The notes under the pieces were generated by a model. It was not told the origin of the DNA and did no database searches. It worked only from the letters and a program-made list of their open reading frames with translations. The position numbers were made by a program, and so were the translations under genes. DNA of 60,793 bases from an uncultured Rhodobacterales bacterium (GTDB lineage: Bacteria > Pseudomonadota > Alphaproteobacteria > Puniceispirillales > GCA-002684695): positions 1 through 60,793 of the forward strand of contig CAZCWO010000001.1 in assembly GCA_964502335.1 (NCBI GenBank), read 5' to 3'. Shown here in pieces: positions 27,597 to 57,240 of this stretch. The first letter of the stretch is position 1, and each line of letters opens with the position of its first letter.

Positions 27597-28730
27597 TTAT
27601 AGCTTTCTTGATATACTACTTACCAACCTATTAAAGTCATTCTCATTATTCCAAAGATGGGGAGTAATTCTTAAAAACCCGCCTCGCTCTGAAAGAAAAA
27701 TATTTTCCTTCTCCAATAATCTTAATAGGTTTTTGGGGTGTTTTTTGGGTAATTTGGCACCAATAAAATGTGGCCCGCGTTCTCCCTCAGGGGTAACGGT
27801 TAAACCTATATTTTCTAATCTCTCAGATAATAAAGTATTTTGAACTTTCAGAGTTTCTTCAATATTGTTTATACCCCATTCTAAAATTTGTTCTAAAGCC
27901 TTTATAACTCCAGGCATTAGTGCAAAATTAGACCTTTCTCCCATATCATACCTTACTGCACCAGGCTCATAATGGTCTGTATAATTTACAAGATTAGAAA
28001 AGTTTTTGCTGTCTTTTCTGGTTATCCAACCTTCTTCAAGAGGCTCTCCAAAGCAGTTTTCTGGAGATGCATACAAAAATCCTGTTGAGTAGGGTCCTAG
28101 CATCCATTTGTAATTTGAGACAACAGCAAAATCTGGTCTTACTTGTTTAAAATCTATTTGCATTGCTCCAGCTGATTGCGTGAGATCCAAAACCATAAAA
28201 CAATTTATATCATCACATCTCTTTCGAAGAGCGATAAGATCAATTAATTTTCCACTTGTCCAAGTAACATTTGGAACAGCAACTACAGCACAACTCTCAT
28301 CCATTTCCTTGAGGATTGAATCAGTGATTGTTTCATTTTCAACAGTTTCAATAAACTTGATAAAACAATCACTTTTATTAGCTAATCGCTTCCATGGATA
28401 TACATTAGAGGGAAATTGATTTTCAATTAAAATTATTTTTTTCTTTTCACCCAACTTTAAATTATTGACTGCTGTTTGAATCCCATAAGATGTAGAGGGA
28501 ACTATTGCTAGGTTTTGAGGGTTAACATTTATAATTTTTGAAAACAGTAATCTTGCTTTATCAACCTGCTCATAAAAATCCGGGATGGTTAATCTCCATG
28601 GCTGAGACTTCAGTCTTGCCCCTTCGTCTGTTGCTTTAATTACAGAATTCAACAATGGAGACATGTATGCAGTATTCAAATATGCAACATCATCTGGAAT
28701 GTTAAATAAATGTCTCTGAGATTTAATCAT
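27597..28730 (-). CDS. class V PLP-dependent aminotransferase/desulfurase-like protein
   Basis: 377 aa, with ..VVSNYKWMLGPYSTGFLY.. (putative PLP lysine) and a class V fold-type I layout. Confidence 0.75.
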   Translation of the reverse strand: MIKSQRHLFNIPDDVAYLNTAYMSPLLNSVIKATDEGARLKSQPWRLTIPDFYEQVDKARLLFSKIINVNPQNLAIVPSTSYGIQTAVNNLKLGEKKKIILIENQFPSNVYPWKRLANKSDCFIKFIETVENETITDSILKEMDESCAVVAVPNVTWTSGKLIDLIALRKRCDDINCFMVLDLTQSAGAMQIDFKQVRPDFAVVSNYKWMLGPYSTGFLYASPENCFGEPLEEGWITRKDSKNFSNLVNYTDHYEPGAVRYDMGERSNFALMPGVIKALEQILEWGINNIEETLKVQNTLLSERLENIGLTVTPEGERGPHFIGAKLPKKHPKNLLRLLEKENIFLSERGGFLRITPHLWNNENDFNRLVSSISRKL

Positions 28731-28756
28731 CTTTTAATTTAAATTGCTTAAAATGT

Positions 28757-29965
28757 CTAAGTTTTTTCTATAATTATTGCACTACCCTGACCAACGCCAA
28801 CACACATTGTACAAAGAGCTAATTTATTATTCTTATTTTGATGCAACTCTTCAGTGGCAGTAAGAACTAATCTAGCACCAGACATACCTAGTGGATGGCC
28901 CAAAGCTATAGCGCCTCCATTAATGTTTACTCTTTTATCATCATCCGATAACTTCAAATCTCTCATTGTTGCTAAAGCTTGTGAAGCAAATGCTTCATTC
29001 AACTCAATAACTTGAATTTTTCCTATCTCTAATTTTGATAGAGAGAGTGCCTTTAAGGTTGCCGGCACAGGCCCTATTCCCATAACGTTTGGCTCAACTC
29101 CAACTGCAGCAGAGGAAACGACCCTCGCTCTTGGAGACAAGTTATGCTTTTTAATCGCTTTTTCAGAAGCAATTATTAAAGCTGCTGAGCCATCATTTAC
29201 ACCGCTAGCATTCCCCGCAGTGACTGTTCCATTTTTCCTAAACGGAGTGGGAAGGGAATTCAGTTTCTCAATTTTAGTGTCCGCACGAGGATGCTCATCT
29301 TTTTCAACAACTATTTCACTTTTCTTCAAACTCACCTTTACTGGAAAGATCTCATTTACAAACCTTCCTCTAGCAATAGCATTTGCAGCTTTTTGTTGAG
29401 ACCATAAAGCAAATCTATCTTGATCTTCACGACTCACTTTCCATCTTGAAGCTACATTTTCACCTGTCTCAGGCATTGAATCAACACCGAACTTTTCTTT
29501 CATAATGGAATTAATAAACCTCCAACCAATTGTTGTATCATAAATTTCAGCATTTCTTGAAAAGGCAGATGATGCTTTTGGCATAACAAAGGGAGCACGG
29601 CTCATACTCTCAACGCCACCGGCAATTACCAGCTCCGCCTCTTCTGCCTTAATCATTCTTGCAGCATATGTAACCGCTTCCAATCCTGACGCACAAAGTC
29701 TATTGATTGTAATGCCTGGAACTGACGCTGGAAGACCTGCAAGCAATAATGACATTCTTGCAACATTCCTGTTGTCTTCGCCTGCTTGGTTTGCACATCC
29801 AAATACGACCTCTTCCAGGAGTTCCCAGTCAATACTATTGTTTCGGTTCATTAATTCTTTTAAAGAAAGTGCAGCAAGGTCATCTGCCCTTATAGAAGAT
29901 AAACCACCTCCAAACCTTCCAATTGGCGTTCTAATAGCATCACAAATAAAAGCTTCCTTCATCAA
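28757..29965 (-). CDS. pcaF: acetyl-CoA C-acyltransferase (3-oxoadipyl-CoA thiolase PcaF/PaaJ-like)
   Basis: It has N-terminal MKEAFICDAIRTPIGRFGG, NRLCASGLEAV (nucleophilic Cys), GGAIALGHPLGMSGARL and CVGVGQG. Confidence 0.9.
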   Translation of the reverse strand: MMKEAFICDAIRTPIGRFGGGLSSIRADDLAALSLKELMNRNNSIDWELLEEVVFGCANQAGEDNRNVARMSLLLAGLPASVPGITINRLCASGLEAVTYAARMIKAEEAELVIAGGVESMSRAPFVMPKASSAFSRNAEIYDTTIGWRFINSIMKEKFGVDSMPETGENVASRWKVSREDQDRFALWSQQKAANAIARGRFVNEIFPVKVSLKKSEIVVEKDEHPRADTKIEKLNSLPTPFRKNGTVTAGNASGVNDGSAALIIASEKAIKKHNLSPRARVVSSAAVGVEPNVMGIGPVPATLKALSLSKLEIGKIQVIELNEAFASQALATMRDLKLSDDDKRVNINGGAIALGHPLGMSGARLVLTATEELHQNKNNKLALCTMCVGVGQGSAIIIEKT

Positions 29966-30744
29966 TTAATTTCTTTCCTTGAGTTTGCTATTTGCGTTCT
30001 TTTTTTGAGATCTCTCAAAGTGTTTAACTCTAACTCAGTTGGCGGTTGAGTAACCTCTAAATTTTCAAAAAACTTAACCTGCCAACCGCAATTATCTTGA
30101 ACCATTTGCTTTGTAACACCTTCATGAATTGAAAATACAGTAAATTCTTTTGAAACTGGATCCGGTTTCCAAATAGCTAGATCAGTTATCAATAGGGTGG
30201 GCCCATCAGTGCCAATATTTAATGATTGGCGATGATCGTTACCTTCTCCATGTCCAAAACTGGTAAAAAAGTCTATTTTTTCTACCATTCCTCTGAGAGA
30301 TTGTTTCATTGTAACATAAACTTGCTTTGCAGAGGATGCTATTTCAGGTGCGCCACCTCCTCCTGGGAGACGTGTTTTTGGGTTGTTGTAATCTCCAATT
30401 ACAGTGGTATTAATATTGCCAAATTTATCCAATTGTGCAGCCCCTAAAAACCCTGTTGTTATTCTTCCACCTTGAAGCCAGTACCTGAACATCTCTGGGA
30501 CTGGAACTGTCGAAATAGCTGTCTCGCATAATTCTCCATCTCCAATTGAAAGAGGTAAAATACTGGGAGCAGTGCCAATGGTTCCACTTTCATAAATAAG
30601 AGTTATATTAGGTGCATGTGTTAACCTAGCTATATTACACGCTGCGGATGGCGCACCTATACCAACAAAGCATACATCTTTATTGGTCAAAGCCCTAGAA
30701 GCAGCGATAGTCATCATTTCATCTGAAGAATAACTACTACTCAT
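29962..30744 (-). CDS. pcaJ: CoA-transferase subunit B (3-oxoadipate:succinyl-CoA transferase / glutaconate CoA-transferase type)
   Basis: 260 aa. It has 4-nt and 8-nt overlaps with its neighbours. The subunit sizes (286 + 260 aa) match the GctAB-like 3-oxoadipate CoA-transferase known from Pseudomonas sp. B13. Confidence 0.8.
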   Translation of the reverse strand: MSSSYSSDEMMTIAASRALTNKDVCFVGIGAPSAACNIARLTHAPNITLIYESGTIGTAPSILPLSIGDGELCETAISTVPVPEMFRYWLQGGRITTGFLGAAQLDKFGNINTTVIGDYNNPKTRLPGGGGAPEIASSAKQVYVTMKQSLRGMVEKIDFFTSFGHGEGNDHRQSLNIGTDGPTLLITDLAIWKPDPVSKEFTVFSIHEGVTKQMVQDNCGWQVKFFENLEVTQPPTELELNTLRDLKKRTQIANSRKEIN

Positions 30745-31597
30745 TACTACTTTCTCTATGGCTTTCTACGCGACTCTTAAAAATTTCCGCTCCAACATCT
30801 AGAACATTTTCCTTCATCCAATTATTAAAAATTTCCCTGTCAGAAGCGATTTTATCCCATTCAATGTAGCTAGCGTTATCCCTTTTATAGTAACCTCTAA
30901 CGTATGAAGGGTGTGCACCTCCTGGGACATGACAAATAGAACTTATTGTCCATTCTGGCAAAACTGTAGCATTGGGGTGAGAATTTAAATCTTTAACTAT
31001 TTCCTCGACTGTTACAACTGACCTTCTTGAAGCTAATACCGCCTCCTTCTGGACTCCAAGTATCCCTTCAATTAAAACGTTGCCTTTTTTATCAGCTTTT
31101 TGAGCGTGGATAAAAGCTACATCAGGTTTTAAAGAGGGAATAGCTGTCAATTCTTCACCGGTAAACGGACAAATAACAGTTTTGATGTTTGGATTAACTT
31201 TCCTGAGCTCTGCTCCCTTATAACCCCTAAAGATTGCGCAAGGAAGTCCCGCAGCGCCAGCTTCATAAGCATGCGCCATTGCAGAATGCGAATGTTCTTC
31301 AATTTCAATTTTATTTGGCCAGCCATTTTCAACCGAATCTCTGAACCTCCTTAACAACCCCACTCCCGGATTTCCTGCATAAGAGAAAATCATTTTTTTT
31401 ACCAAACTCATACCAATCAATTGATCATAAATGACATCAGGCGTCATTCTAATAATTGTCAAACTTCCTATCTTTTGCCTGATTACTTCATGAGCAGATG
31501 CGTGGGGAATAAGATGCGTAAACCCCTCAAAACAAACAGTATTGCCTCTGTCCAAGTTTTTACTAACTGCTTCACTTAATGATAAAAACTCTGCCAT
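30737..31597 (-). CDS. pcaI: CoA-transferase subunit A (GctA/PcaI type)
   Basis: 286 aa, with N-terminal MAEFLSLSEAVSKNLDRGNTVCFEGF typical of family I CoA-transferase A subunits of the glutaconate type. Confidence 0.8.
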   Translation of the reverse strand: MAEFLSLSEAVSKNLDRGNTVCFEGFTHLIPHASAHEVIRQKIGSLTIIRMTPDVIYDQLIGMSLVKKMIFSYAGNPGVGLLRRFRDSVENGWPNKIEIEEHSHSAMAHAYEAGAAGLPCAIFRGYKGAELRKVNPNIKTVICPFTGEELTAIPSLKPDVAFIHAQKADKKGNVLIEGILGVQKEAVLASRRSVVTVEEIVKDLNSHPNATVLPEWTISSICHVPGGAHPSYVRGYYKRDNASYIEWDKIASDREIFNNWMKENVLDVGAEIFKSRVESHRESSNE

Positions 31598-31662: not shown

Positions 31663-34600
31663 CTACAAATCAATCTCAATCATACCACCATCTTCTGAAG
31701 CGCGGCTCTTGCATATAATAATTTGTGTCTCTTTTTGCTTTTTGGAAAGAACAAAGTCCCTATGCTCAACTTCACCTGATATTAAACCACATTTACAAAC
31801 CCCACATATTCCGTCAGAGCACTTAACATCAATTTGATAACCATTTTCGTTTAAAATCTCTGCTGCGGTTTTATCCAAAGGAACCAAAAACTCTTTTTTG
31901 GATCTAGATAATTTTAATCTAAAATCATAATTAATATAATCTGGTTCATCAGGAACTGAAAAATACTCTAAATGTCTGGCTTCTTCTGGAAAACCAATAT
32001 CCCCTGCAACTTCGTTTAAAGAACTCATATAGTTTTCAGGTCCACATATATATATTTGAAAACCTTTTTTATAGCTTCCTAAAATTGAACGAAAATCTGC
32101 GCGTGTGCCTTGGTCAGTAAAATAAAGGAAAACCTTATCAGACCATGAAACTGACTTCAAGTCTTGCAAATAACCAGCATCCTCCATAACACTTGTGGAA
32201 TAATGAACTTCAAAATCTTTTCCCAAAGCTTGTAGCCGATGAGCAAAGGCAATCATAGGGGTTATCCCGATACCACCTCCCATTAAAAAGGTCTTTGGCT
32301 TATTTTCATCTAATTCAAAATGGTTGATAGGTTTCGAAATAAAGATTTTTCGTCCTTTTGAAAATATGCGGTGCATCATTTTTGAGCCACCACGCCCTTC
32401 TTCTTCTCGTAACACACCAATCTGATATTTTGAACGATCTGCAGGATTACCAGACATTGAATATTGTCTTAAAAATTCAGGGGCCACAACAATATCAATA
32501 TGTGCACCGGCCTCCCATTTGGGAAGATCTGATCCATTTGGTGTTTTAAATTCATATTTTGTAACTAGACTAGACATTTCTTCAACTTTGCTGACAACAA
32601 CCTGAATAACAGGTGAATTACTCGAGACATGGTATTGATGTAAATGCTCTGTTTCATTTCGACTGAGTTTGATTTTATATTCTTCTGCCGTAATCATTGC
32701 TTGATACGCCTCAATTCCAGCCTCACGGTCCATAAGAAATGGGTATGGCCATGGATGTGGAGCAAGGTTTGCAGGATAAACAGCTAAAGTTTGGTCTTCA
32801 TATTTTAAATTAAGGTCGAGTTGAAGCCCCCTTCGATTAATCGGGTTACGACTTGGTCGATAACCACCATCTTCATAAAGCTCAATATCCCACCACCATT
32901 TTTTAATATCATTGAGACTTCCTCTACCTAAGTAATCATCTAACTTTGCGAGAGGTTTTGCTAGTTGCGGAATGTTCGATGCAGCCCATCGAAAAGGGGC
33001 TTCTGCAAATAAACCCTCCAGGTTCCACGGACATGTTTTCATACATCGACCACACATTGAACCGCCATCTGTTGTGATACGATAAGTAGCACATTTTTGA
33101 CTATCTGACTTCCAAATTTCATATCCGTTAAACATTAACTTCGGCCCTGCCGTGATCGCTCCCGATGGACATTCACGGGCACATTTATTGCAATTTTCAC
33201 AAAAATTCTGCATACCAAAATCTATTGGTTTATCGAATTCTAGAGGCATATCTGTTGTAACAACACCAGACTTTAAGCGCGGTCCAAGATATGGATTTAA
33301 AATGACTTCACCTATACGACTAACCTCACCTAACCCAGAAAGCAATAATAGCGGTGGCTGAAGAACTTCTCCATCCATTACAGTATGTGACTTTGCTTTA
33401 AAGCCTAAATTTCGAATTTGCTTTGCAATGACCCCGCCTAATAGCGAGAACCTTAAATAGGCACGCATTGATTGCGCAACCGAAATCCAATCATCACCTG
33501 AGGCTCCCTCCATCGTTTCATACCCCTGATCAATGATCATCGATATTGCATTATTATGCTCAGGGTTAATTGGTTCGCCCCTCGCGTCATGACTGTACCA
33601 TGTCCAATCAGGACACCTAGAAATCCCAACGGCGTCTATACCTAAAAAATAACTAGCAGCCTTAATATTTTCTGCATTTCGTTTCGCATCAGCAGGTCGA
33701 GTACCGTCTATATTAGGCTCCCCGTCTTGAAGCAAAACAAATGCACCGAGTGCACGCCGTTGGGCGTACGAAGGAGCAGATTTTCTTGCATAGTGGCCAC
33801 CTTTTGCGCCTTCTTGATTGTTTTTACCCATGTCCCCAAACTGAGCACGAGCAAACATATCAGCTCGTTTTGGAACTCGTGCAACATTTTCTTCATCAAT
33901 AAACGTCGTTGGTTTGTCAACTCTCTTCAACCTTTCAAAAGGATAGGCGCCATCAATAAACTGCCTATAGGCATATGGATCTCGGTTCATAATGTTTTTT
34001 GAAAAACCCATTCCCAACCACCACGCAGGACCTTTAGTTTTAAACCATGGCTGCTCTTTATCTGGTGCCAAAGGATGGTCAATTGCTAAATCGATTGAGC
34101 AGGTCACAGCTGAAAAGCCAAAGTTTGTTCCTATATATGGAGCAACTAATTCATTGTCCTCGTGCCAAACAAGCCCAGATGCAACAGACAATTGGTTAAT
34201 ATCAACATCTGAAGCTGAACCCGAATGCGATTTAGCATCGTACCCTAACAAACGTATGTAATTGGCAATAACCGCAGCTGTTTCATTAGCTCGTAAACTA
34301 GCTCGGTGAGGCAATGCTTCTTGCAACCAATCAACACCTGGTTCATCTTTACGAATATCTCTCGGGTTCTCATATAAGAAAATAATTGCGTGCGTGTGTC
34401 CGTCTATTGTCGTTGGAGGCGCTTCCATTGAATCTTTTAGATCTGCCATAATCATATCAATACCAGCAGCCAATGTTTTAGTTTGCCGAGTTCTAAGAGC
34501 TTCAGCTAAACTCTCTATATCAGGATTCATAATGGCTTTGGCAAGAATTGCGGTTGAAGGTAATTGGCAAATTCCAACCATTGATGCATCGCAAAAATAT

Positions 34601-34872
34601 CCAAATGCTTTCAAATGATTTGCCCGTTCTTGAGGGTCTGAAGGAATCTGGGCGGTAACTTTGTTAACTAAACCATCACGAATTGCATCCATCATCGCTT
34701 GGTACTCAAGCATTGCGTTAACAATATTTTCAGGCGCCTCTTCTCTGTGAAAAGACAATGGTTTCATTGGGATTACAGAGTTTAAGTCTGGCATAGTGCC
34801 TCGTTTTAAACTTTCAATCGGGTAAGGCCCCAAATGAACAGGGCGTTTCTTATCAGAAAAAAAACGTTTCAC
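31663..34872 (-). CDS. reductive-dehalogenase-like (RdhA-type, 2x[4Fe-4S]) module fused to an FNR-like flavin/NAD(P)H module and a plant-type [2Fe-2S] ferredoxin (PDR-type reductase)
   Basis: 1069 aa with a GTG start. It has CENCNKCARECPSGAI (DNA about 33150-33215) and CGRCMKTCPW (about 33020-33060). The C-terminal 320 aa or so (DNA about 31663-32640) carry RQYSMSG, GGGIGITPM and CSDGICGVCKC..C. There is no twin-arginine signal and no rdhB-like anchor nearby. Confidence 0.8.
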   Translation of the reverse strand: MKRFFSDKKRPVHLGPYPIESLKRGTMPDLNSVIPMKPLSFHREEAPENIVNAMLEYQAMMDAIRDGLVNKVTAQIPSDPQERANHLKAFGYFCDASMVGICQLPSTAILAKAIMNPDIESLAEALRTRQTKTLAAGIDMIMADLKDSMEAPPTTIDGHTHAIIFLYENPRDIRKDEPGVDWLQEALPHRASLRANETAAVIANYIRLLGYDAKSHSGSASDVDINQLSVASGLVWHEDNELVAPYIGTNFGFSAVTCSIDLAIDHPLAPDKEQPWFKTKGPAWWLGMGFSKNIMNRDPYAYRQFIDGAYPFERLKRVDKPTTFIDEENVARVPKRADMFARAQFGDMGKNNQEGAKGGHYARKSAPSYAQRRALGAFVLLQDGEPNIDGTRPADAKRNAENIKAASYFLGIDAVGISRCPDWTWYSHDARGEPINPEHNNAISMIIDQGYETMEGASGDDWISVAQSMRAYLRFSLLGGVIAKQIRNLGFKAKSHTVMDGEVLQPPLLLLSGLGEVSRIGEVILNPYLGPRLKSGVVTTDMPLEFDKPIDFGMQNFCENCNKCARECPSGAITAGPKLMFNGYEIWKSDSQKCATYRITTDGGSMCGRCMKTCPWNLEGLFAEAPFRWAASNIPQLAKPLAKLDDYLGRGSLNDIKKWWWDIELYEDGGYRPSRNPINRRGLQLDLNLKYEDQTLAVYPANLAPHPWPYPFLMDREAGIEAYQAMITAEEYKIKLSRNETEHLHQYHVSSNSPVIQVVVSKVEEMSSLVTKYEFKTPNGSDLPKWEAGAHIDIVVAPEFLRQYSMSGNPADRSKYQIGVLREEEGRGGSKMMHRIFSKGRKIFISKPINHFELDENKPKTFLMGGGIGITPMIAFAHRLQALGKDFEVHYSTSVMEDAGYLQDLKSVSWSDKVFLYFTDQGTRADFRSILGSYKKGFQIYICGPENYMSSLNEVAGDIGFPEEARHLEYFSVPDEPDYINYDFRLKLSRSKKEFLVPLDKTAAEILNENGYQIDVKCSDGICGVCKCGLISGEVEHRDFVLSKKQKETQIIICKSRASEDGGMIEIDL

Positions 34873-34882: not shown

Positions 34883-35228
34883 TTACTCTTTCAAGTTTAA
34901 CATATCAGTCATAATCGTTGCTGACATACCACCGTCAATAGTAATGTTTTGGACTTTGATCCAAAAGCTATTTGGCGATGTCAGGAATACAATAATATCC
35001 GCAACTTCGCCAGGTGAAACTGGCCTGCCAACTCTTGCTATATTTTTAGCAACTTTTTCTCCAAAAGCACTAGTAAAATCTTGCAAAATCTCTTTACTCA
35101 CCGCAGCGGGACATACTGAATTAATTCGAACTCTCTGGCATTCAACTCTTCAGTTCTAAATATAATCATGGCAATCATTGTTTCTTTTGAATGGTTATAT
35201 GCTCTTACTGGATCGATTTCCTGTCTCT
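34883..35228 (-). pseudogene. frameshifted, 5'-truncated short-chain dehydrogenase/reductase remnant
   Basis: One frame (35228-35097) reads ..EIDPVRAYNHSKETMIAMIIFRTEELNAR.. and contains the YxxxK motif at 35198-35184. A second frame (35149-34883) reads RVRINSVCPAAV..PGEVADIIVFLTSPNSFWIKVQNITIDGGMSA*. The frame shift lies near 35130-35140, and stop codons lie upstream of 35228. The remnant ends 10 nt before the rdhA-like start. Confidence 0.6.
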
Positions 35229-35403
35229 TCAAATGTTAATTTTTGTCAGATTCATAAATCAGATACATAAAATCTATAGTTTTAGCACCCGCTTCAAGAT
35301 TCAAATGTGCTTTCATTGCTAGCAAAATCAGAGACGAATTTTTTAAAACTATTACACTAACGGGATTCCAGCGCAAGATTTTTAATGATCAAATGTTATT
35401 AAA

Positions 35404-35507
35404 TAGGATCCCAAAATTAAATTTTTATGTTAATAATAGAGTTTTAATGGGTAAATTACTTGACTTTGGGATCCATTTGTGAGTCATTAGAGCAGGGGGA
35501 TCCCATT
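35404..35507. promoter_or_regulatory. three GGATCCCA-type palindromic sites upstream of the TAXI-TRAP operon
   Basis: The sites are TAGGATCCCAAAA (core 35406-35413), TGGGATCCA (35467-35475, directly after a TTGACT hexamer at 35460-35465) and GGGATCCCA (35497-35505). Confidence 0.5.
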
Positions 35508-35679
35508 TTGGCAAGATTTCATGCTGATATCTTGTGGAAGGTAAAACTTCTTGTGACCCATGTTATGGAGGCGCTAAACAAAAATTTGATTGGCCTTCGC
35601 TAAAATGGCCTCACAAATTCCTCATATATATTTTGAACCTAAAATTGGTTCGTCAGAGCAAGAACAAATGGAGGAAATA

Positions 35680-36735: not shown

Positions 36736-36757
36736 TTATGACTTGAATTACTTTGAT

Positions 36758-49305: not shown

Positions 49306-49369
49306 AATAAATTAACATAAAATTAAAACTAGACAATTTATTTATATGATAGAAAGAAAGGAGCATTTG

Positions 49370-49768
49370 ATGACCCAACGCGATTATGATGATGTGCCCG
49401 GAACCTACGTTTTGGATAGCCGAAGTTACCGCAAAGGGTATAGTCTCAACATGTTTTTGATGACACTGAACAAGTCTGTTCACCGTGATGAGTTTGCTTT
49501 GAATGAAAATGGCTATCTTGATAAGTTTAATGTGTCAAAAGAGCAAAAACAGGCTGTTATAGAACGTGACTATTTGCAGATGCTTAAACTTGGCGCAAAT
49601 GTCTACTATACTTTCAAACTCGTCAGCCATGACCGTCTCCAACCACAATATATGTATGGCAAAATGAGTGATCCAGAACTGAGTTTTGAGGAATTTCAGC
49701 AGATGATGCTATCAGGTGGAAGATCAATAGAGGGCAATCGAAGTAAAAAGGAGAAGAAAAATGGCTAG
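49370..49768 (+). CDS. ligA: protocatechuate 4,5-dioxygenase alpha subunit
   Basis: It starts MTQRDYDDVPGTYVLDSRSYRKGYSLNMFLMTLNK, a LigA-type N-terminus. AAGGAG lies 8 nt upstream of the ATG at 49370. It overlaps ligB by 8 nt. Confidence 0.9.
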   Translation: MTQRDYDDVPGTYVLDSRSYRKGYSLNMFLMTLNKSVHRDEFALNENGYLDKFNVSKEQKQAVIERDYLQMLKLGANVYYTFKLVSHDRLQPQYMYGKMSDPELSFEEFQQMMLSGGRSIEGNRSKKEKKNG

Positions 49769-50600
49769 AATTATATCTGGAATGGGAACTTCCCACGTCC
49801 CAGGAGTAGGGGCGGCAATCGACAATGGCAAAACAGATGAGCCCTACTGGAAACCACTATTTGCAGGATTTGAGCCATTGCGTGCTTGGCATCGTAAGCA
49901 TGTCCCAGATGTCAATATAATAGTTTTTAATGATCATGCTACATCCTTTTCACTTGATAAATATTCTACTTTTACTTTAGGAGTTGCCGAAACCTTCAAA
50001 CCTGCAGATGAAGGCTGGGGACCACGAAAGGTTCCTGATGTTCAGGGTCATCCTGATCTTGCTTGGCATATCTTAGAACAGCTTATCTTTGAAGAGTTTG
50101 ATATGGCAGTTGCCGGTAGCCTTGATGTTGATCACGGTCTGACGGTGCCCTTATCCATTGCCTATGATCAACCCAATCAATGGCCAACCGCAGTTATTCC
50201 ATTATGTGTCAACGTAATCCAATATCCACAACCTACAGCTTTGCGTTGTTACAAACTGGGGCAAGCAATTAAGCGGGCCGTTGAAAAGTTTGATCAGGAC
50301 CTCACTGTCAGCATCTGGGGCACTGGGGGCTTATCTCATCAACTTGGTGGTGAGAGAGCTGGCGTTGTTAATCCAGAATTTGACAAGGTTTTTTTAGACA
50401 ATATTGTCTCTGATCCACTTGCGAATACCCGTTTCACTCATACTGATTTTATCCGTGAGGCCGGATGTGAGGGCATTGAGATGATCATGTGGAATGTGAT
50501 GCGTGGTGCATTAAATGAGAAAGTTAACGAAGTTTATCGTTTCTATCACATTCCCGTTTCGGCAACCGCCTATGGCGCTATGATTTTAGAAAATACTTAA
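49761..50600 (+). CDS. ligB: protocatechuate 4,5-dioxygenase beta subunit (catalytic)
   Basis: It has MARIISGMGTSHVPGVGAAI..VFNDHATSF.., collinear with LigB of Sphingobium sp. SYK-6 as I remember it. Confidence 0.95.
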   Translation: MARIISGMGTSHVPGVGAAIDNGKTDEPYWKPLFAGFEPLRAWHRKHVPDVNIIVFNDHATSFSLDKYSTFTLGVAETFKPADEGWGPRKVPDVQGHPDLAWHILEQLIFEEFDMAVAGSLDVDHGLTVPLSIAYDQPNQWPTAVIPLCVNVIQYPQPTALRCYKLGQAIKRAVEKFDQDLTVSIWGTGGLSHQLGGERAGVVNPEFDKVFLDNIVSDPLANTRFTHTDFIREAGCEGIEMIMWNVMRGALNEKVNEVYRFYHIPVSATAYGAMILENT

Positions 50601-50624
50601 GATTTACCTATAGGAACAAATACA

Positions 50625-51578
50625 ATGAAAAAAATAAAAATTGGCGTTGCAGGTGCCAATGGTGCTTTTGGGACAAAACATCTTCAAGCACTTTCAGCTA
50701 TTGATGATGTAGAAGTTGCAGCTGTAATGGCAACGTCACTCAATAAAGCAAATCTTGTTGGTGATGAATTCTCTGTTCCTCTCCGTTTTGATGATTATGA
50801 AGCATTTATTGCCAGTGATAAAATTGATGCTGTGATTCTGGCCACTCCTACCCAGCTTCACGCAGCACAAGGAATTAGTGCAATGGAAGCAGGAAAACAT
50901 GTGCTAGTGGAAATTCCTATGGCTGATAGTTTAGCAGATTCGGAAAGACTTGTTGCTAAACAGCAGGAAACAAATCTTGTCGGTATGGCTGGGCATGTGC
51001 GCCGCTTTAACCCATCCCATCAATGGATACATAACAAAATTAAGGCAAACGAATTGTCAGTTCAGCAAATGGATGTGCAAACCTATTTTTTCCGTAGAAC
51101 AAACATGAATGCTAAAGGCGAGCCTCGTTCATGGACGGATCACCTTCTTTGGCATCATGCCTGCCATACAGTCGATCTCTTTTTACATCAAACAGGTGAA
51201 AATATTAAAGAAGTTCACGCTGTTCAAGGACCGAAACATGATATGCTGGGAATTTCGATGGACATGGCAATAATTCTTAAAACAGATAATGGCAAGCTGT
51301 GCACATTGTCACTATCATTCAATAATGATGGGCCCCTTGGCTCATTTATCCGATACATTTGTGATAATGGAACTTATGTTGCGAGTTATGATGATTTGTT
51401 TGACGGTCGAAATGAACAGATAGATGTATCAAATATTGATGTGTCAACGAACGGTATTGAATTGATTGATAGAGAATTTATCCATGCAATTAAAGACGGC
51501 AGGGAACCCAGAGCAAGTTTTGCTCAGTGCCTGCCAACCATGAAAGTTCTGCATGATATTGAAAAAATGATGACCTGA
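50625..51578 (+). CDS. ligC: 4-carboxy-2-hydroxymuconate-6-semialdehyde dehydrogenase (Gfo/Idh/MocA family)
   Basis: It has the stretch GHVRRFNPSHQWIHNKI..QQMDVQTYFFRRTNMNAKGEPRSWTDHLLWHHACHTVDLF, near-identical to the LigC pattern. Confidence 0.9.
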   Translation: MKKIKIGVAGANGAFGTKHLQALSAIDDVEVAAVMATSLNKANLVGDEFSVPLRFDDYEAFIASDKIDAVILATPTQLHAAQGISAMEAGKHVLVEIPMADSLADSERLVAKQQETNLVGMAGHVRRFNPSHQWIHNKIKANELSVQQMDVQTYFFRRTNMNAKGEPRSWTDHLLWHHACHTVDLFLHQTGENIKEVHAVQGPKHDMLGISMDMAIILKTDNGKLCTLSLSFNNDGPLGSFIRYICDNGTYVASYDDLFDGRNEQIDVSNIDVSTNGIELIDREFIHAIKDGREPRASFAQCLPTMKVLHDIEKMMT

Positions 51579-51584
51579 TAAGTA

Positions 51585-52688
51585 ATGACTAACCAAACAG
51601 CTATTCCCTTCATGCAAATCAGAGGAGGCAGTTCTAAAGGGGTATATTTCCGTGCTGATGACCTACCGTCAAATAAAGAAAAAAAAGAATCTGTTTTAAA
51701 ATGGGTAATTGGCGCCTTCGGTGACCCACGCCAAATTGACGGACTAGGAGGAGCTGATCCGTTGACTTCAAAAATCGCTATTGTTGAAAAGTCTAAACAC
51801 CTTGATTGTGATATTGACTACAGTTTTGTTCAGGCTATTGTTGGTGAAGATAAACTGGATGACACGCCTAATTGCGGAAATCTATTAGCTGGTGTAGGTG
51901 CTTTTGCTTTAGAATCGGGACTGATTTCAGCAAAAGGTAACGAAGCAGAAATCAGTGTTTACATGAATAATAGTGGCAATCGTTGTGACCTTAACTTTCC
52001 TATAAAAAATGGCCAGCCGATTTACAATGGGAAAACCACAATTGACGGTGTTTATGGCACCTCTGCTCCTGTCATGTGCCGATATTATGACCTTGCAGGC
52101 TCAGCAACAGGCAGCATCCTGCCAACAGGCTATGTCTGTAATGAATTTGAAAGCATCAAAGTAACCTGTGTAGATAATGGCATGCCAGTAGTGTGTATGC
52201 GTGCTGAAGATTTTGGTCTGACAGGCAACGAGACGCCAAATGAACTTGATGGCAATGATGATTTGAAAAAAAAAATTGAATCCATTCGTCTTAAGGCGGG
52301 AGCTGCAATGATGTTAGGGAATGTGGCAGCCAAAGCTGTGCCTAAAATGTGTCTTGTTTCTCAGCCTCAAGCAGGAGGATCATTTAGTACTCGTACCTTT
52401 ATTCCAAAACATTGCCATAAAGCCATCGGTGTATTAGGAGCTGTATCTGTTGCAACTGCAGCACTTTATGAGCGCAGTTCTATCCATGATCTGGCGATCA
52501 TACCAGAAGGTTTGAGTAAATTGATGCGCATTGAACATCCTTCAGGATCGTTTGATGTTGAACTTGAACTGAACCCAGAAAGCACAGGTATTGATATTGT
52601 TCGTGCAGGACTTTTGCGTACTGCAAGACTAATTAGCAAGGGGGAAGTCTATGTTCCGAAAACAATCTGGCAGGGAGCACAAAGTTGA
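51585..52688 (+). CDS. ligU: PrpF-family isomerase (4-oxalomesaconate tautomerase / OMA delta-isomerase)
   Basis: 367 aa with the N-terminal IPFMQIRGGSSKGVYF that is characteristic of PrpF/GalD/LigU. Its position inside the lig operon supports the call. Confidence 0.8.
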   Translation: MTNQTAIPFMQIRGGSSKGVYFRADDLPSNKEKKESVLKWVIGAFGDPRQIDGLGGADPLTSKIAIVEKSKHLDCDIDYSFVQAIVGEDKLDDTPNCGNLLAGVGAFALESGLISAKGNEAEISVYMNNSGNRCDLNFPIKNGQPIYNGKTTIDGVYGTSAPVMCRYYDLAGSATGSILPTGYVCNEFESIKVTCVDNGMPVVCMRAEDFGLTGNETPNELDGNDDLKKKIESIRLKAGAAMMLGNVAAKAVPKMCLVSQPQAGGSFSTRTFIPKHCHKAIGVLGAVSVATAALYERSSIHDLAIIPEGLSKLMRIEHPSGSFDVELELNPESTGIDIVRAGLLRTARLISKGEVYVPKTIWQGAQS

Positions 52689-53593
52689 CTGACTATATTC
52701 ATCCAGCAACGGGTAAAAATAGCTGCATGCCACCTAACCCTGATACGCGAACGCCTATTTTTAGGCCCCCACCCTTATCCTGTGATACACATTGCCACGT
52801 TTTCGGTCCACATGAGGTATTTCCATATCACAGTTCATCAACCTATCATCCCCCTGATGGCCCCAAAGAAAAACTTGATGAACTACACTCTATACTTGGC
52901 ATTGAACGTGCCGTCATTGTTCAAGCTTCGTGTCATGGTCCTGATAACAGAGCGATGCTTGATGCTATTTCCAAAAAACCGCATGCCCTTCGCGGAGTTT
53001 GCATCGCTGATGATAGTTTTTCTGATGAAGACTTTGCAGATCTTGATGCAGGTGGAGTGCGTGGCATCCGTTTCAATTTTGTTACTCATCTTGGTGGCAC
53101 CCCTGATCTGGATATGATGAAAAGGGTTCTTCATCGTGTTCTGCCTTTGGGTTGGCATTTGGTGATACATGTCAATGCTGAGGATATTATTAAATTTCAA
53201 GAATTTTTTCTTCAATTTAAGATGGAAATCATCGTTGATCATATGGGACGTGTACCAACATCAAATGGCCTGCATCAAAAAGCTTTTCAGATTTTGAAAG
53301 ATTTTGTGCGCCGTGATAACTGGTGGGTTAAGATTTGTGGCTCTGAACGTATCTCTTCTGCGGGACCGCCCTTTTATGATGCTGTCCCTTTTGCACAGGA
53401 ACTTGTCGGGATTGCGCCAGACAGAACCTTGTGGGGAACAGACTGGCCCCACCCCAATATAAAAAAATTTATGCCAAATGACGGTGATCTCGTGGATCTT
53501 GTTCCTCTTTTGGCCAAAGATGAGAATTTGCAGAAAAAAATTCTGGTTGATAATCCGGCCCGCCTTTATGGTTTTGATGATAAGGAGAAATGA
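52685..53593 (+). CDS. ligI: 2-pyrone-4,6-dicarboxylate lactonase (amidohydrolase superfamily)
   Basis: It has ..[10 protein letters not shown].., [25 protein letters not shown] and WGTDWPHPN. It starts with TTG at 52685, overlapping the ligU stop. Confidence 0.9.
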
Positions 53594-53594
53594 A

Positions 53595-54323
53595 ATGAAA
53601 ACAGTTGCAGTCAAAAATATTAAACGTGCTGATGCCCAAATTGCTGATAAGCTTGGTACTATTGGGGCATCTACAATTCATGAGGCACAAGGTCGTGTCG
53701 GTTTGATGAAACCCTATATGCGACCAATTTTTCCAAGTGCCCGCATTGGAGGAACAGCAGTTACTATATTGGTTCAACCTGGGGATAACTGGATGATCCA
53801 TGTCGCCATCGAACTTTGCCAGCAAGGTGATGTGCTCGTAGTCGCCTGCACCAGCGACAACACAGATGGTTTTTTTGGAGATTTGCTGGCAACATCAGCT
53901 CAGGCGCGTGGCGTAAAAGGTCTGGTGATAGATGCGGGAGTGCGGGACGTAGCTGATCTTCACAAAATGAATTTTCCAGTCTGGTCGCGTGCAGTTTCAT
54001 CCAAAGGCACTGTGAAAAACACTCTTGGGGCGGTAAATGTTCCCGTTATTTGTGCGGGTCAGTTAGTGTTTCCTGGAGATGTCATTGTTGCTGACGATGA
54101 TGGGGTTTGTGTTGTTGCCAGAAAAGAAGTAGAAACTGTTTTAAAAAAAGCAAAGCTCAGACTTACTGATGAAGAAGAAAAGCGGTCTCACTTCGCTAAG
54201 GGCGAACTGGGAATAGATATCTACAATATGCGTCCACGCCTAAAAGAAGCCGGGTTTGAGTATGTTGAAGATTTAGAAAGTTTGGGTTCATTTAATGGTA
54301 TCGACTGTCGCAAAAAGGATTAA
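53595..54323 (+). CDS. ligK: 4-carboxy-4-hydroxy-2-oxoadipate aldolase / oxaloacetate decarboxylase (RraA-like fold)
   Basis: The ATG at 53595 is preceded by AAGGAG (53582-53587) and lies 1 nt after the ligI stop. It reads [32 protein letters not shown]... The longer ORF-track start at 53478 lies inside ligI. Confidence 0.85.
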
Positions 54324-54328
54324 AACTA

Positions 54329-55339
54329 ATGATAATTGACTGCCACGGGCATTATACAACCACCCCCCCTGCTGTTGAACACTACAGAAATACGCAAAAA
54401 GAACTATTGAAGAAAGATCCTAATCATATTTTTGAAAAAGGTACGATTAAACTCTCAGATGATGAAATACGCGAGACCATTGCTAGCAATCAGTTAAAAA
54501 CGCAACAGGATCGGGGCACAGACGTCACTATTTTTTCCCCTCGGGCTAGTTGGATGGGGCACCATGTTGGCAATGCTTCTACATCAAAAGCATGGACGGA
54601 GCAGCAAAATGATTTGATTAAACGGGTTTGTGATTTGTTTCCCAAAAATTTTGTGCCTGTTTGCCAACTTCCACAAAGTCCTGAAACACCCATTGCAAAT
54701 AGTATTATCGAACTTGAACGCTGCGTCATAGAAATGGGCTTTGTAGGTTGCAACCTGAACCCTGACCCTTCTGGAGGTTTCTGGAAAGATGCTCGTCTTG
54801 GTGACCGTTACTGGTATCCTTTTTATGAAAAAATGGTTGAACTTGATGTGCCTGCAATGATACATGTCTCGGGTGCTTGTCAGCATGCAATGGACACTAC
54901 ATCAAGCTATTATCTGGGTGCAGATACAACAGCTTTTGTTCATTTAATGTTTTCGGATGTTTTCAAAGATTTTCCAAATTTGAAGATAATCATACCTCAT
55001 GGGGGTGGAGCGGTTCCATACCATTGGGGACGATTTCGAGGAATTGCTCAAGACAAAGGACTTGGCAATCTTGACGATCTAGTGTTGAATAATATCTTTT
55101 TTGACACTTGCGTCTATCATCAGCATGGCATTGACTTGCTGCTAGATGTAATACCAGTAAAAAATATTTTATTTGCCTCTGAAATGATTGGAGCAGTAAG
55201 AGGTATCGACCCGCTTACCGGCCATTATTATGATGATACGAAACGCTATATCGATGCTAATAACTCACTCAACAAAACTGACAAGCGCAAGATTTTTGAG
55301 GGCAATGCACGTCGTGTTTTCTCACGTTTAAAAGTTTGA
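54329..55339 (+). CDS. ligJ: 4-oxalomesaconate hydratase (amidohydrolase_2 family)
   Basis: It has MIIDCHGHYTTTPP.. and ..IIPHGGGAVPYHWGRF.., typical of LigJ. Confidence 0.9.
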   Translation: MIIDCHGHYTTTPPAVEHYRNTQKELLKKDPNHIFEKGTIKLSDDEIRETIASNQLKTQQDRGTDVTIFSPRASWMGHHVGNASTSKAWTEQQNDLIKRVCDLFPKNFVPVCQLPQSPETPIANSIIELERCVIEMGFVGCNLNPDPSGGFWKDARLGDRYWYPFYEKMVELDVPAMIHVSGACQHAMDTTSSYYLGADTTAFVHLMFSDVFKDFPNLKIIIPHGGGAVPYHWGRFRGIAQDKGLGNLDDLVLNNIFFDTCVYHQHGIDLLLDVIPVKNILFASEMIGAVRGIDPLTGHYYDDTKRYIDANNSLNKTDKRKIFEGNARRVFSRLKV

Positions 55340-55398: not shown

Positions 55399-56703
55399 TC
55401 AATTAAACATAGTATTTGGTAAAAACATTGCAATGTCTGGGAACAACAATACCAAGATAACGCAGCCCATCATTGCAAACCAAAAAGGCCATATTCCACT
55501 AAAAATCGTTTGGAGTGAAACACCCGGTGCAATTCCTTTAACTACAAACACATTCATACCGACCGGAGGGGAAATCAGACCCATTTCGAGAACAATAACA
55601 ATCAGCACCCCAAACCAGATCATGTTGATTCCAAGTGGTTCGATGATCGGTTGAACTAATGGCACAGTTAGAACAAGAATAGCAAAACCATCCATAAACA
55701 TGCCAAGAATAATATAAATAAGCAAAAACGCCAAAACTACCTGATAACCGCTCCACGCCTGGGTCTCCACCCAAAGTGACAAATCATAGGTAATTGAAGA
55801 AAATCCTATAAAAGTTTTAAAAACAAAGGCACCAAAAAGAATCATGAAAACTGTGCCTGATGATTTAAGGGTTTCTGTCAGCACTTCTGATATATTTGCA
55901 AAAGTAAGTTTACCACGAATTACTGTAACAATTACTGCCAAAAAAGCGCCAACACCAGCTGCCTCAACTGCAGAGAATACCCCTGTGTAAATGCCTCCAA
56001 TTGTCAACAAAATAATGCCGGTGATCCAACTTGCTCGTCGTAGCATTCTCAAACGGTTTGCCAGAGATTCAATCTTACCTGAATGCGGCGCTTTTGAAGG
56101 ATCCAGATATACAACAATCGAAATCGCCAAGACAAAAAGCGCCGTTAGTAACAATCCAGGTACAACTCCAGCCAAAAACAGACGGCCTATGCTTTCCTCT
56201 GTTAAAATGGCATAAATCACAAAACCCGCCGAGGGAGGTATCAAAATGCCAAGCGTTCCTCCAGCGGCAATTGACCCAGTCGCCAAACCATCATCATATT
56301 TATAACGTTGCATTTCCGGCAGACTGACACGACCCATAGTTAAAGCTGCAGCAAGTGATGATCCAGACAACGCAGAAAACCCCGCGCAACCCACTACAGT
56401 TGCTGAAGCAAGCCCTCCCTTTAAATGTCCTGTCCAACTGTGTGCCGCATCATAAAGGTCTCGGCTCATCCCTGAAACAGACGCTAGATTACCCATTAGA
56501 ATAAATAATGGAATAATCGTTAGTGGGTAATTGGAAGCTTCATTAAAAATCTCGCCAGCAAGTTTTGGTATGGCGGCTTGTTCACGGATCATCCAGATGC
56601 CCCACGTGCCCACCAGCATCATTGCCACTCCTACTGGCATACGAATAAATAAAAGCAAAAGCAGTACAATAAAACCGATCAGAGCAACTGTAGGGCCTTC
56701 CAT
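55399..56703 (-). CDS. dctM: TRAP transporter large permease
   Basis: 434 aa and about 12 TM, with a typical DctM sequence (..LLLLFIRMPVGVAMMLVG.., ..ISPPVGMNVFVVKGIAP..). Confidence 0.95.
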   Translation of the reverse strand: MEGPTVALIGFIVLLLLLFIRMPVGVAMMLVGTWGIWMIREQAAIPKLAGEIFNEASNYPLTIIPLFILMGNLASVSGMSRDLYDAAHSWTGHLKGGLASATVVGCAGFSALSGSSLAAALTMGRVSLPEMQRYKYDDGLATGSIAAGGTLGILIPPSAGFVIYAILTEESIGRLFLAGVVPGLLLTALFVLAISIVVYLDPSKAPHSGKIESLANRLRMLRRASWITGIILLTIGGIYTGVFSAVEAAGVGAFLAVIVTVIRGKLTFANISEVLTETLKSSGTVFMILFGAFVFKTFIGFSSITYDLSLWVETQAWSGYQVVLAFLLIYIILGMFMDGFAILVLTVPLVQPIIEPLGINMIWFGVLIVIVLEMGLISPPVGMNVFVVKGIAPGVSLQTIFSGIWPFWFAMMGCVILVLLFPDIAMFLPNTMFN

Positions 56704-56712
56704 CAGCTTTTC

Positions 56713-57240
56713 TTACTTGCGAGAAACTTCAGAGCGAGGGTCTACCAGGCTACGCAGCAGGTCTAGTATTACCTGAAGGCAGTAAAATACCATTGCAGCG
56801 CTCAGAATGTAATAGAAGGGTATAAACTCAATACTAAAATTTGAGGTGATACAAGCTTTTTCAAAACCGCAGGCTTTATCAAATAAAGCCCAAGCAGCCA
56901 ACGCGATAATTGCTATTACCAAGACCCGCATAACCATATCTGTGTAGCGTGTCACTGCAGGACCAAAAAAATAGGAAATGATGTTAACACTGACATGCGC
57001 ATCTTTGCGGGCACCATAAGCAACAGAAGCAGCAACCATCACCGACAGTGTTATGATAGATAAATCTTCAATTCCAAAAATCGGGTTGTTTAAGCCGTAG
57101 CGCCAAGTAACAGCAGTAACCGTAATGCCCATTAAAACACATGCAGCAACCGAACCTACCACAGCAAACAGCCCGGCAATATAGCCGAGCTGTCTATCAA
57201 TTTGAATCAGGGTTTGCCTTCCCTGATGAGACAAGGTCAT
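56713..57240 (-). CDS. dctQ: TRAP transporter small permease
   Basis: 175 aa and 4 TM. It sits between dctP and dctM and overlaps dctP by 4 nt. Confidence 0.85.
   Translation of the reverse strand: MTLSHQGRQTLIQIDRQLGYIAGLFAVVGSVAACVLMGITVTAVTWRYGLNNPIFGIEDLSIITLSVMVAASVAYGARKDAHVSVNIISYFFGPAVTRYTDMVMRVLVIAIIALAAWALFDKACGFEKACITSNFSIEFIPFYYILSAAMVFYCLQVILDLLRSLVDPRSEVSRK

Follow-up and report, generated by a model that had tools for sequence, protein, structure and literature searches.

In a 60,793-nucleotide stretch of DNA (hereafter the window; contig CAZCWO010000001.1, positions 1 to 60,793), a gene on the minus strand (31663..34872) codes for a protein of 1069 amino acids (aa) in which an RdhA-type reductive dehalogenase is continued by a phthalate dioxygenase reductase (PDOR) module. 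The gene, called rdhA here, is complete, with a GTG start and a stop codon at 31663-31665. In our view its product acts in the cytoplasm, tolerates oxygen and belongs, with BhbA and JtRdhA, to the RdhA-PDOR fusions, which are self-sufficient catabolic reductive dehalogenases; we put the probability of this reading at roughly 0.82. Such an architecture has already been published as the "full-length" or "self-sufficient" class of catabolic RdhA (PMC10463259), and the gene is a further member of it. A first-pass annotation, made from the letters of the DNA, had named BhbA and the NpRdhA class as precedents; the architecture is neither rare nor poorly known, since the class has been described and homologues are widely annotated.

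The listing of open reading frames (ORFs) and the translation both gave a single uninterrupted frame of 1069 codons, as the first-pass annotation had claimed, and placed it on the minus strand. We estimate that, at about 40% GC, so many codons without a stop would arise by chance with a probability near 1e-30, and when the interval 31663-34872 was translated on the plus strand, stops were found throughout. Residues 3-26 aligned with the N-terminus of NpRdhA in a search of PDB sequences, and F5, R10, P18, E20, L22 and R24 were invariant in an alignment of 57 homologues, which makes the GTG start credible. A GAAAGAG stretch is located about 20 nt upstream of this GTG.

The catabolic RdhA module comprises aa 1-747 (32632..34872, minus strand). 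Its three parts are a vestigial duplicate of the cobalamin-binding domain at the N-terminus, the cobalamin-binding core itself and a domain with two [4Fe-4S] motifs. It matched the NCBIfam reductive dehalogenase model TIGR02486 with 202 bits (E 2e-59; cut-off 160.35). The best match among solved structures was NpRdhA (4RAS, E 6.7e-155), with query residues 3-105 and 158-747 aligned to NpRdhA residues 2-101 and 112-703, and a pairwise alignment of the two proteins gave 42% identity over 683 columns. The respiratory enzyme PceA was matched over the core only (4UQU, E 1.2e-28), and the respiratory RdhA structure 8Q4H was matched with E 2.8e-19. The vestigial duplication, a hallmark of catabolic RdhAs, was recognized both in the alignment with NpRdhA and by superposition on it. 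Every defining feature of the catabolic RdhA-PDOR class that can be read from a sequence is present in the protein, and it does not fit the definitions of QueG or of the respiratory RdhAs.

Since class III B12 enzymes include the epoxyqueuosine reductase QueG, we weighed whether the protein could be a reductase of the RdhA fold that does not dehalogenate, either a QueG-like epoxide reductase or an enzyme acting on another phenolic substituent. A weak match to the QueG model TIGR00276 (27 bits, residues 477-579 only) and to the QueG structure 5D08 (E 0.007) would agree with this, and for the pelagic subclade dehalogenation is extrapolated from characterised relatives. However, the QueG score is far under its cut-off of 200, whereas the reductive dehalogenase model passes its own, so that in the profile comparison proposed earlier the N-terminal module falls on the side of the dehalogenases. 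In addition, the residues that bind halide and hydroxyl in NpRdhA are identical in the window protein and invariant in its homologues, and the characterised member of the fusion class, JtRdhA, is a true debrominase and deiodinase. We therefore regard a non-dehalogenating function as very improbable.

In order to locate the active site, the 4RAS sequence was rebuilt from the printed alignment and the published residues were transferred to the window protein. The residues F340, S468, M469, Y472, K534 and R598 (33079..33855, minus strand) correspond to F291, S422, M423, Y426, K488 and R552 of NpRdhA, and the catalytic Tyr, Lys and Arg, which the first-pass annotation had proposed to check in such an alignment, are thus conserved. 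In ligand complexes of NpRdhA, S422, K488 and R552 bind the hydroxyl group of the substrate, the Y426-K488 pair is the proton donor and the halogen lies on the cobalt (PMC7565698); the roles of these residues are also treated in PMC10463259. All six, together with the eight cysteines of the [4Fe-4S] motifs and the four of the [2Fe-2S] motif, were invariant in the 57 homologues.

The cofactor motifs quoted in the first-pass annotation (Fe-S, flavin, NAD(P)H and [2Fe-2S]) are all present in the translation. The first [4Fe-4S] motif, C558-x2-C561-x2-C564-x3-C568-P (33166..33201, minus strand), is contained in CENCNKCARECP, which spans C558-P569. The second, C594-x12-C607-x2-C610-x3-C614-P (33028..33093, minus strand), reads C594-X12-CGRCMKTCPW and aligns to C548...CGRCMKMCPW of NpRdhA, and the Pfam families Fer4_7 and Fer4_16 matched residues 558-617. 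The PDOR module (aa 758-1069; 31666..32601, minus strand) contains domains for flavin mononucleotide (FMN) and NAD(P)H and a plant-type [2Fe-2S] ferredoxin domain. The flavin-binding motif R802-Q-Y-S-M-S-G808 (32449..32469, minus strand) has R802, Y804, S805 and G808 invariant, and the nucleotide-binding motif G865-GGIGITP-M873 (32254..32280, minus strand) has G867, I868, G869 and P872 invariant. The [2Fe-2S] ligands C1018, C1023, C1026 and C1054 (31711..31821, minus strand) lie inside the Pfam Fer2 match (residues 989-1058), the first three within CSDGICGVCKC (residues 1018-1028). Phthalate dioxygenase reductase itself (2PIA) was matched with E 7e-52 (query 758-1060 against chain residues 11-314), and the reductase domains of CYP116B matched the C-terminal module over residues 751-1061 (6KBH and 6LAA, E about 1e-52 to 1e-54, with 3.5e-54 for 6KBH).

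An AlphaFold2 model built on the 57-sequence alignment (mean pLDDT 71, pTM 0.68) was of high confidence for the vestigial N-terminal domain and the PDOR module. In Foldseek, the NpRdhA structures 4RAS, 6ZXU and 6ZXX came first (E about 5e-49, target-normalised TM-score 0.75-0.77), followed by 2PIA and the CYP116B reductase domains 6KBH and 6LAA, and superposition of the model covered NpRdhA from end to end (about 745 columns, TM-score 0.77). The predicted structure thus supports the two-module architecture, with pocket geometry and interdomain docking lying beyond the reach of the model. Between them, the PDB, profile and Foldseek matches bear out the two modules proposed in the first-pass annotation, an RdhA-type Fe-S module and a reductase tail with FMN and [2Fe-2S], with the N-terminal part resembling NpRdhA and the C-terminal part phthalate dioxygenase and CYP116B reductases. 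An insert of about 42-52 aa (aa 105-157; 34402..34560, minus strand), absent from NpRdhA, was seen as a gap of 42 aa in the alignment and as a break at 105-158 in the HMMER match. Many of its residues are invariant across the 57 homologues, and the model predicts helices at 118-126 and 138-150. In position, it corresponds to the RdhA-PDOR-specific insert described for JtRdhA, which was modelled as covering the active site (PMC10463259).

No twin-arginine (RRxFLK) motif was found in the 1069-aa protein and no membrane segment either, the maximum Kyte-Doolittle mean over 19 residues being 1.33. At 30-37 kb there is no credible rdhB; the small hydrophobic ORFs in this interval are two antisense to and inside rdhA and one of 43 aa in the upstream spacer. 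The protein should accordingly be cytoplasmic and soluble, and these motif, hydropathy and small-ORF checks agree with the earlier statement that it has neither a twin-arginine translocation (Tat) signal nor an anchor gene nearby; the proposal of a cytoplasmic, catabolic and NAD(P)H-driven enzyme is likewise supported by the sequence evidence. A respiratory, energy-conserving reductive dehalogenase would share the core and the Fe-S motifs with PceA, as the match to 4UQU shows that the window protein does. It would, however, be expected to carry a Tat signal, a membrane segment or an rdhB partner, and here the neighbours are soluble catabolic enzymes and transporters, the protein has an NAD(P)H reductase fused to it and shows the duplication in vestigial form that is typical of catabolic RdhAs, and the DNA probably comes from an aerobic pelagic roseobacter. 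A respiratory role is scarcely credible on these grounds.

More than 3100 homologues were obtained in a database search, and the best 120 were collinear with the window protein (1037-1080 aa, 70-96% identity, 98-100% query coverage). Several of these 120 are already named "reductive dehalogenase", and NCBI and JGI label many. The full-length homologues belong mostly to the Rhodobacteraceae. A scan of species-representative genomes yielded 414 loci with a relative, and the isolates bearing one include HIMB11, Ruegeria, Shimia, Phaeobacter, Roseobacter sp. MED193 and SK209-2-6, Nioella and Oricola; homologues from isolate genomes are 69-76% identical to the window protein and those of roseobacters 68-78%. 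The cluster at 90% identity has 42 members, with 10 of the 15 listed measuring 1069 aa. In a 50% clustering of 1.84 billion representatives, the window protein belongs to a large roseobacter cluster; among the 150 best matches, only three clusters consist of full-length fusions (64%, 45% and 47% identity), and unfused clusters of the NpRdhA type (about 700-740 aa) stand alongside them.

As the contig comes from a metagenome-type assembly and a pseudogenised gene lies immediately upstream of rdhA, the fusion might be suspected to be an assembly or frameshift artefact, or the gene a decaying pseudogene. Against this, four other independent assemblies (two from JGI, one from ENA and one from Logan) contain this ORF with the same three genes behind it; two of them record its product at the full length of 1069 aa, the other two at 962 and 958 aa. 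The uninterrupted ORF is thus common to independent JGI, ENA, Logan and NCBI assemblies, which settles the earlier concern about an artefactual junction near 32.6 kb, and isolates carry it at 69-76% identity. Compared with the 96%-identical orthologue in locus L081, the ratio of nonsynonymous to synonymous substitution rates (dN/dS) was 0.056 overall, 0.045 in the RdhA core, 0.056 in the insert and 0.071 in the PDOR module, so both modules and the linker are constrained. Because of the collinear homologues, the independent assemblies and the low dN/dS in both modules, we take the fusion to be real and functional: the comparisons indicate an intact gene under purifying selection throughout, and the artefact or pseudogene explanation deserves next to no weight.

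The closest characterised system is JtRdhA, the self-sufficient RdhA-PDOR of the marine roseobacter Jhaorihella thermophila (WP_104007082; Fisher et al. 2023, PMC10463259). This enzyme contains FMN, a [2Fe-2S] cluster, two [4Fe-4S] clusters and base-off cobalamin, and it couples NADPH oxidation 1:1 to product formation even in air (PMC10463259). It debrominates and deiodinates ortho-halophenolics, among them 3,5-dibromo-4-hydroxybenzoate, 3-bromo-4-hydroxyphenylacetate, bromoxynil, 2,6-dibromophenol, iodophenols and tetrabromobisphenol A (TBBPA), while chlorinated analogues act only as inhibitors (PMC10463259). With this measured substrate table from a marine roseobacter, the view that the substrates of marine homologues are essentially unknown has become outdated. 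Like the window protein, JtRdhA has no Tat signal, a vestigial duplicate of the cobalamin domain, two [4Fe-4S] clusters, a C-terminal PDOR and the fusion-specific insert, and the two share the residues F291, S422, M423, Y426, K488 and R552 in NpRdhA numbering. The host of JtRdhA is a marine member of the Rhodobacteraceae, which we take to be the family of the window's host as well. Unlike JtRdhA, the window protein probably comes from a low-GC pelagic lineage, and its gene adjoins CoA-transferase, thiolase, sulfatase and lig genes.

NpRdhA and BhbA, the two precedents named in the first-pass annotation, were upheld as relatives. BhbA of Comamonas sp. 7D-2 (WP_015585978), a 3,5-dibromo-4-hydroxybenzoate dehalogenase of the bromoxynil pathway, is an RdhA-PDOR fusion and catabolic, as we propose for the window protein. 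It was compared here by description, and the distant full-length fusion clusters are 45-47% identical to the window protein. BhbA differs in being betaproteobacterial and plasmid-borne and in being tied to a nitrilase for a man-made herbicide. Chen and colleagues are said to have reported, in 2013, an association of BhbA with a TRAP-type binding protein. The bhbA cluster leads to protocatechuate 4,5-cleavage by way of 4-carboxy-2-hydroxymuconate semialdehyde (PMC10463259), and the pairing of an RdhA-PDOR with protocatechuate 4,5-cleavage genes in the window parallels it.

NpRdhA of Nitratireductor pacificus pht-3B (4RAS, 6ZXU, 6ZY1) agrees with the window protein in the two-domain RdhA fold, vestigial duplicate included, in the Fe-S motifs and in the polar residues of the catalytic site, but it is naturally truncated, has neither a PDOR module nor the insert at aa 105-157 and needs separate redox partners. 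Its dehalogenation was shown with surrogate partners, whereas self-sufficient activity driven by NAD(P)H was shown for JtRdhA (PMC10463259). For the C-terminal half, 2PIA and the class VII/CYP116B P450 reductases (6KBH, 6LAA) have the same order of FMN, NAD(P)H and [2Fe-2S] modules and the same logic of fusion to a partner; the partner is an oxygenase or a P450 in those systems and a corrinoid enzyme in the window protein. Respiratory RdhAs (PceA 4UQU, 8Q4H) and QueG (5D08) share the class III B12 core and two [4Fe-4S] clusters with it. The former, however, have a Tat signal and an RdhB anchor, form dimers and lack a reductase fusion, and QueG reduces epoxyqueuosine and has a model that the window protein fails. 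Orthology with the recently characterised debrominase Ros_A3X954 of Roseobacter sp. MED193 was ruled out, as this is a short reductive dehalogenase with Fe-S motifs at 283-345 and a PF13486 match that belongs to a different subfamily; MED193 also has a separate full-length fusion, 69% identical to the window protein (L075).

By analogy with these enzymes, NAD(P)H would deliver a hydride to FMN in the C-terminal module, and from FMN single electrons would travel by way of the [2Fe-2S] cluster and then both [4Fe-4S] clusters until they reach the RdhA core with its base-off corrinoid. An ortho-halogenated phenolic would be held through its hydroxyl group by S468, K534 and R598 with its halogen on the cobalt; the carbon-halogen bond would then be cleaved reductively, and Y472, paired with K534, would protonate the carbon. 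If the enzyme behaves like JtRdhA, brominated or iodinated 4-hydroxybenzoates and 4-hydroxyphenylacetates and simple bromophenols are its likely substrates. The dehalogenated ring might serve as a carbon source, since the island also encodes a complete protocatechuate 4,5-cleavage pathway and TRAP (tripartite ATP-independent periplasmic) transporters, with genes for a 3-oxoadipyl-CoA thiolase and for two CoA-transferase subunits downstream of rdhA. For the window protein, corrinoid binding, the preference for NADPH or NADH, the substrates and the link to the lig pathway are inferences.

Several observations weigh against a self-sufficient dehalogenase of this kind. Its cofactor loading and substrates are extrapolated from NpRdhA, which is 42% identical, and from JtRdhA, which was compared through its published description. 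Pfam matches at E up to 1 came from 14 families, all of them Fe-S, Fer2 and reductase domains, and the family Dehalogenase (PF13486) was not among them. The hydrophobic pocket differs from that of NpRdhA at three positions (F290 to M339, A419 to V465 and probably F310 to A366), and therefore the substrate scope may differ; as the fusion enzymes share these changes throughout, they characterise the family and are not peculiar to this gene. In the AlphaFold2 model, pLDDT falls under 50 at 331-365, 506-533 and 554-626, around the cofactor sites in the Fe-S domain and in parts of the corrinoid pocket. The window contains no 4-hydroxybenzoate 3-hydroxylase of the pobA type that would join 4-hydroxybenzoate to protocatechuate, and no sign of corrinoid supply was found within it. 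Finally, the order of the genes downstream of rdhA was the same in loci L081 to L085 and in none of the 80 other loci.

These downstream genes, all on the minus strand, code for CoA-transferase subunits A (30737-31597) and B (29962-30744), a PcaF-type 3-oxoadipyl-CoA thiolase (28757-29965; NCBIfam 679 bits against a cut-off of 605) and a class-V aminotransferase (27597-28730), the CoA-transferase subunits and the aminotransferase being assigned by Pfam and NCBIfam. From rdhA onwards, the spacings are 65, -8, -4 and 26 bp, and the minus-strand terminator-like hits all fall within coding sequence, none of them intergenic. Judging from gene order and spacing, the four genes (27597..31597) are probably co-transcribed with rdhA. 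Scans of promoters and terminators were uninformative, with 14 promoter-like sites (25.6 expected) and 8 terminator-like sites (6.9 expected). None of the 80 more distant loci has the linkage to CoA-transferase and thiolase, which is therefore lineage-specific, and CoA-transferase, thiolase and aminotransferase as conserved partners of RdhA are unsupported beyond the L081 to L085 lineage. Convergent with the aminotransferase that ends the string is a pair of small thiamine pyrophosphate (TPP)-enzyme subunits (26427-27562, plus strand), similar to the alpha and beta subunits of sulfopyruvate or phosphonopyruvate decarboxylase at scores below the curated cut-offs and conserved in L081.

Upstream of rdhA, a C-terminal remnant of a short-chain dehydrogenase/reductase (SDR) of 72 aa (34883..35101, minus strand) ends 10 nt before the rdhA start and covers positions 192-236 of the 236 in the Pfam model adh_short_C2. 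It is 65-67% identical to the full-length SDR found directly upstream of rdhA in HIMB11 (L004) and in L005, and an intact SDR homologue precedes rdhA in L004, L005, L008, L010 and L044. Farther to the right, the window encodes a TAXI-TRAP binding protein (35590-36735, plus strand), a fused TRAP permease (36828-39182, plus), an S1 sulfatase (39218-40813, plus), a metallo-beta-lactamase (MBL)-fold alkylsulfatase (40825-42177, minus) and a second S1 sulfatase (42444-44090, plus), and a GntR regulator is also found among these neighbours, within 35348-49022. A set of glutathione S-transferase (GST), aldehyde dehydrogenase, GST and SDR genes (45043-49007, plus) follows just upstream of ligAB; this set resembles the LigDEFG-like set for beta-aryl-ether (lignin dimer) cleavage, and its first GST gave a weak match to the beta-etherase model NF042997 (26 bits).

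In HIMB11 (L004, 3201-13204), the genes for an S1 sulfatase, an MBL alkylsulfatase, a fused TRAP permease, a TAXI binding protein, an SDR and rdhA-PDOR are arranged head-to-tail and appear to form one operon, with a convergent IclR regulator downstream of the string. Homologues of the S1 sulfatase and the MBL alkylsulfatase, 47-53% identical to those of the window, lie just upstream of rdhA in HIMB11-like loci, and sulfatase homologues of the HIMB11 type were found 2-3 kb upstream of rdhA in L005, L008, L010, L057 and L078 (67-81% identical to those of HIMB11, 47-51% to those of the window). This arrangement raises the possibility that the enzyme and its mechanism are as proposed above and that the natural substrates are sulfated halogenated phenolics or other organosulfates, which would be imported by TAXI-TRAP and desulfated by the S1 and MBL sulfatases before debromination. 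The gene would then be part of an organosulfate-organohalide module and not of a pathway of the bromoxynil or 3,5-dibromo-4-hydroxybenzoate type. The six-gene string of HIMB11 and the sulfatase homologues near rdhA in the five other loci speak for it, as do the two S1 sulfatases, the MBL alkylsulfatase and the TAXI-TRAP genes within 10 kb of rdhA in the window, together with the SDR remnant; moreover, the Ser/Lys/Arg site needs a free phenolic hydroxyl group.

However, the sulfatase linkage was seen in only 6 of the 80 loci in addition to the window, the sulfatase and TAXI-TRAP genes of the window are on the other strand from rdhA, and the TAXI binding protein of the window is only 28% identical to that of L004. 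Furthermore, a comparison of the DNA with L081 (about 91% nucleotide identity) showed that 35348-49022 of the window is an indel of 13.7 kb, with about 60 bp in its place in L081. It holds the TAXI-TRAP genes, the two S1 sulfatases, the MBL alkylsulfatase, GntR and the GST/aldehyde dehydrogenase/GST/SDR set, and no repeat or mobile-element signature was found in the stretches of about 150 bp aligned at its edges. As this segment is absent from L081, where RdhA is 96% identical, RdhA is maintained without the sulfatase and TAXI-TRAP genes. A full-text search of the literature found no paper that pairs a reductive dehalogenase with HIMB11 or with arylsulfatase. Sulfated compounds as the natural substrates therefore seem unlikely to us. 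Equally tentative is a broader proposal for low-GC pelagic roseobacters, in which a conserved organosulfate-organohalide module (S1 sulfatase, MBL alkylsulfatase, TAXI-TRAP and SDR) would end with RdhA-PDOR and have sulfated bromophenolics of algae or invertebrates as substrates; desulfation would expose the phenolic hydroxyl for debromination, after which the ring would be degraded through the adjacent protocatechuate 4,5-cleavage pathway.

The protocatechuate 4,5-cleavage cluster, which bears on the fate of the ring in the favoured reading of rdhA as a self-sufficient dehalogenase, extends over 49346..55339 on the plus strand and comprises ligA, ligB, a ligC-like gene, a PrpF/ligU-like gene, an amidohydrolase (ligI-like), an RraA-like aldolase (ligK-like) and a second amidohydrolase (ligJ-like). 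LigA and LigB were identified by NCBIfam (111.5 bits against a cut-off of 108.6 and 408 against 317, respectively) and the other genes of the cluster by Pfam. In L081, the lig cluster directly adjoins rdhA. Beside it in the window are Pfam-assigned genes for the TRAP transporter components DctM, DctQ and DctP (55399..58220, minus strand), which are present in L081 as well. An ORF of 295 aa (58339-59226, minus strand), between the DctP gene and an aldehyde dehydrogenase, gave no Pfam match.

The GC content at third codon positions (GC3) is 0.17-0.21 for most genes at 1-24.5 kb (up to 0.37), 0.22-0.31 at 24.6-34.9 kb with 0.29 for rdhA itself, and 0.30-0.43 to the right of rdhA. Since GC3 steps up in this way, the surroundings of rdhA are a compositionally distinct island of aromatic and organosulfate catabolism, set apart from the very AT-rich left part of the window. 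The first-pass annotation had seen rdhA in an otherwise streamlined, AT-rich region, and in this respect it has to be corrected for the immediate surroundings (GC3 0.22-0.43). The left part (1-24500) encodes two hydantoinase/oxoprolinase A/B pairs, an N,N-dimethylformamidase-like protein, isochorismatase-family proteins, a monooxygenase of the flavin-containing (FMO) type, DinB and a polyamine-type ATP-binding cassette (ABC) transporter. No tRNA or rRNA genes were found in the window by tRNA and Rfam scans. The only Rfam match at gathering score, PYLIS_3 (25022-25115, minus strand; 42 bits against 38), is neither in nor beside rdhA; it lies inside an uninterrupted ORF of the MttB family (24600-26153), presumably a methyltransferase of the MttB superfamily without pyrrolysine (non-Pyl), and the match probably reflects homology of the coding sequence.

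Regarding the host, two ABC-transporter genes of the left part have mates at least 90% identical in many metagenome-assembled genomes (MAGs) labelled Rhodobacteraceae or Paracoccaceae, the best named matches of hydantoinase B are mostly alphaproteobacterial, and the nearest named relatives of RdhA belong mostly to the Rhodobacteraceae and Paracoccaceae. In a MAG labelled "Dehalococcoidia bacterium", a contig of 13.2 kb encodes RdhA, CoA-transferase and MttB proteins at least 90% identical to those of the window (MBT18076.1, MBT18075.1 and MBT18069.1); if the label were right, this would be a striking case of gene transfer. An origin in SAR202 or Dehalococcoidia was rejected on the basis of the ABC-transporter, hydantoinase B and RdhA relatives, and the label of that MAG is probably a binning error. 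The 78%-identical rdhA of L001 is in a MAG labelled "Flavobacteriales", which also looks like a binning error for roseobacter DNA. A roseobacter of low GC content and pelagic habit is the most probable host of the window.

As an enzyme discovery, the gene adds little, for the architecture, cofactors, mechanism and a substrate table have been published across JtRdhA, BhbA and NpRdhA. Its value is modest and ecological: a probable aerobic debrominase in an apparently low-GC pelagic lineage of the Rhodobacteraceae, within a flexible island of aromatic catabolism and beside the full set of genes for protocatechuate 4,5-cleavage. The linkage of rdhA to sulfatase and TAXI-TRAP genes in HIMB11-like genomes offers a testable hint to the natural substrates of uncharacterised marine homologues, sulfated bromophenols for example. 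If the tentative organosulfate-organohalide module were true, it would link the cycling of marine bromine and organosulfur in abundant bacterioplankton of the surface ocean.

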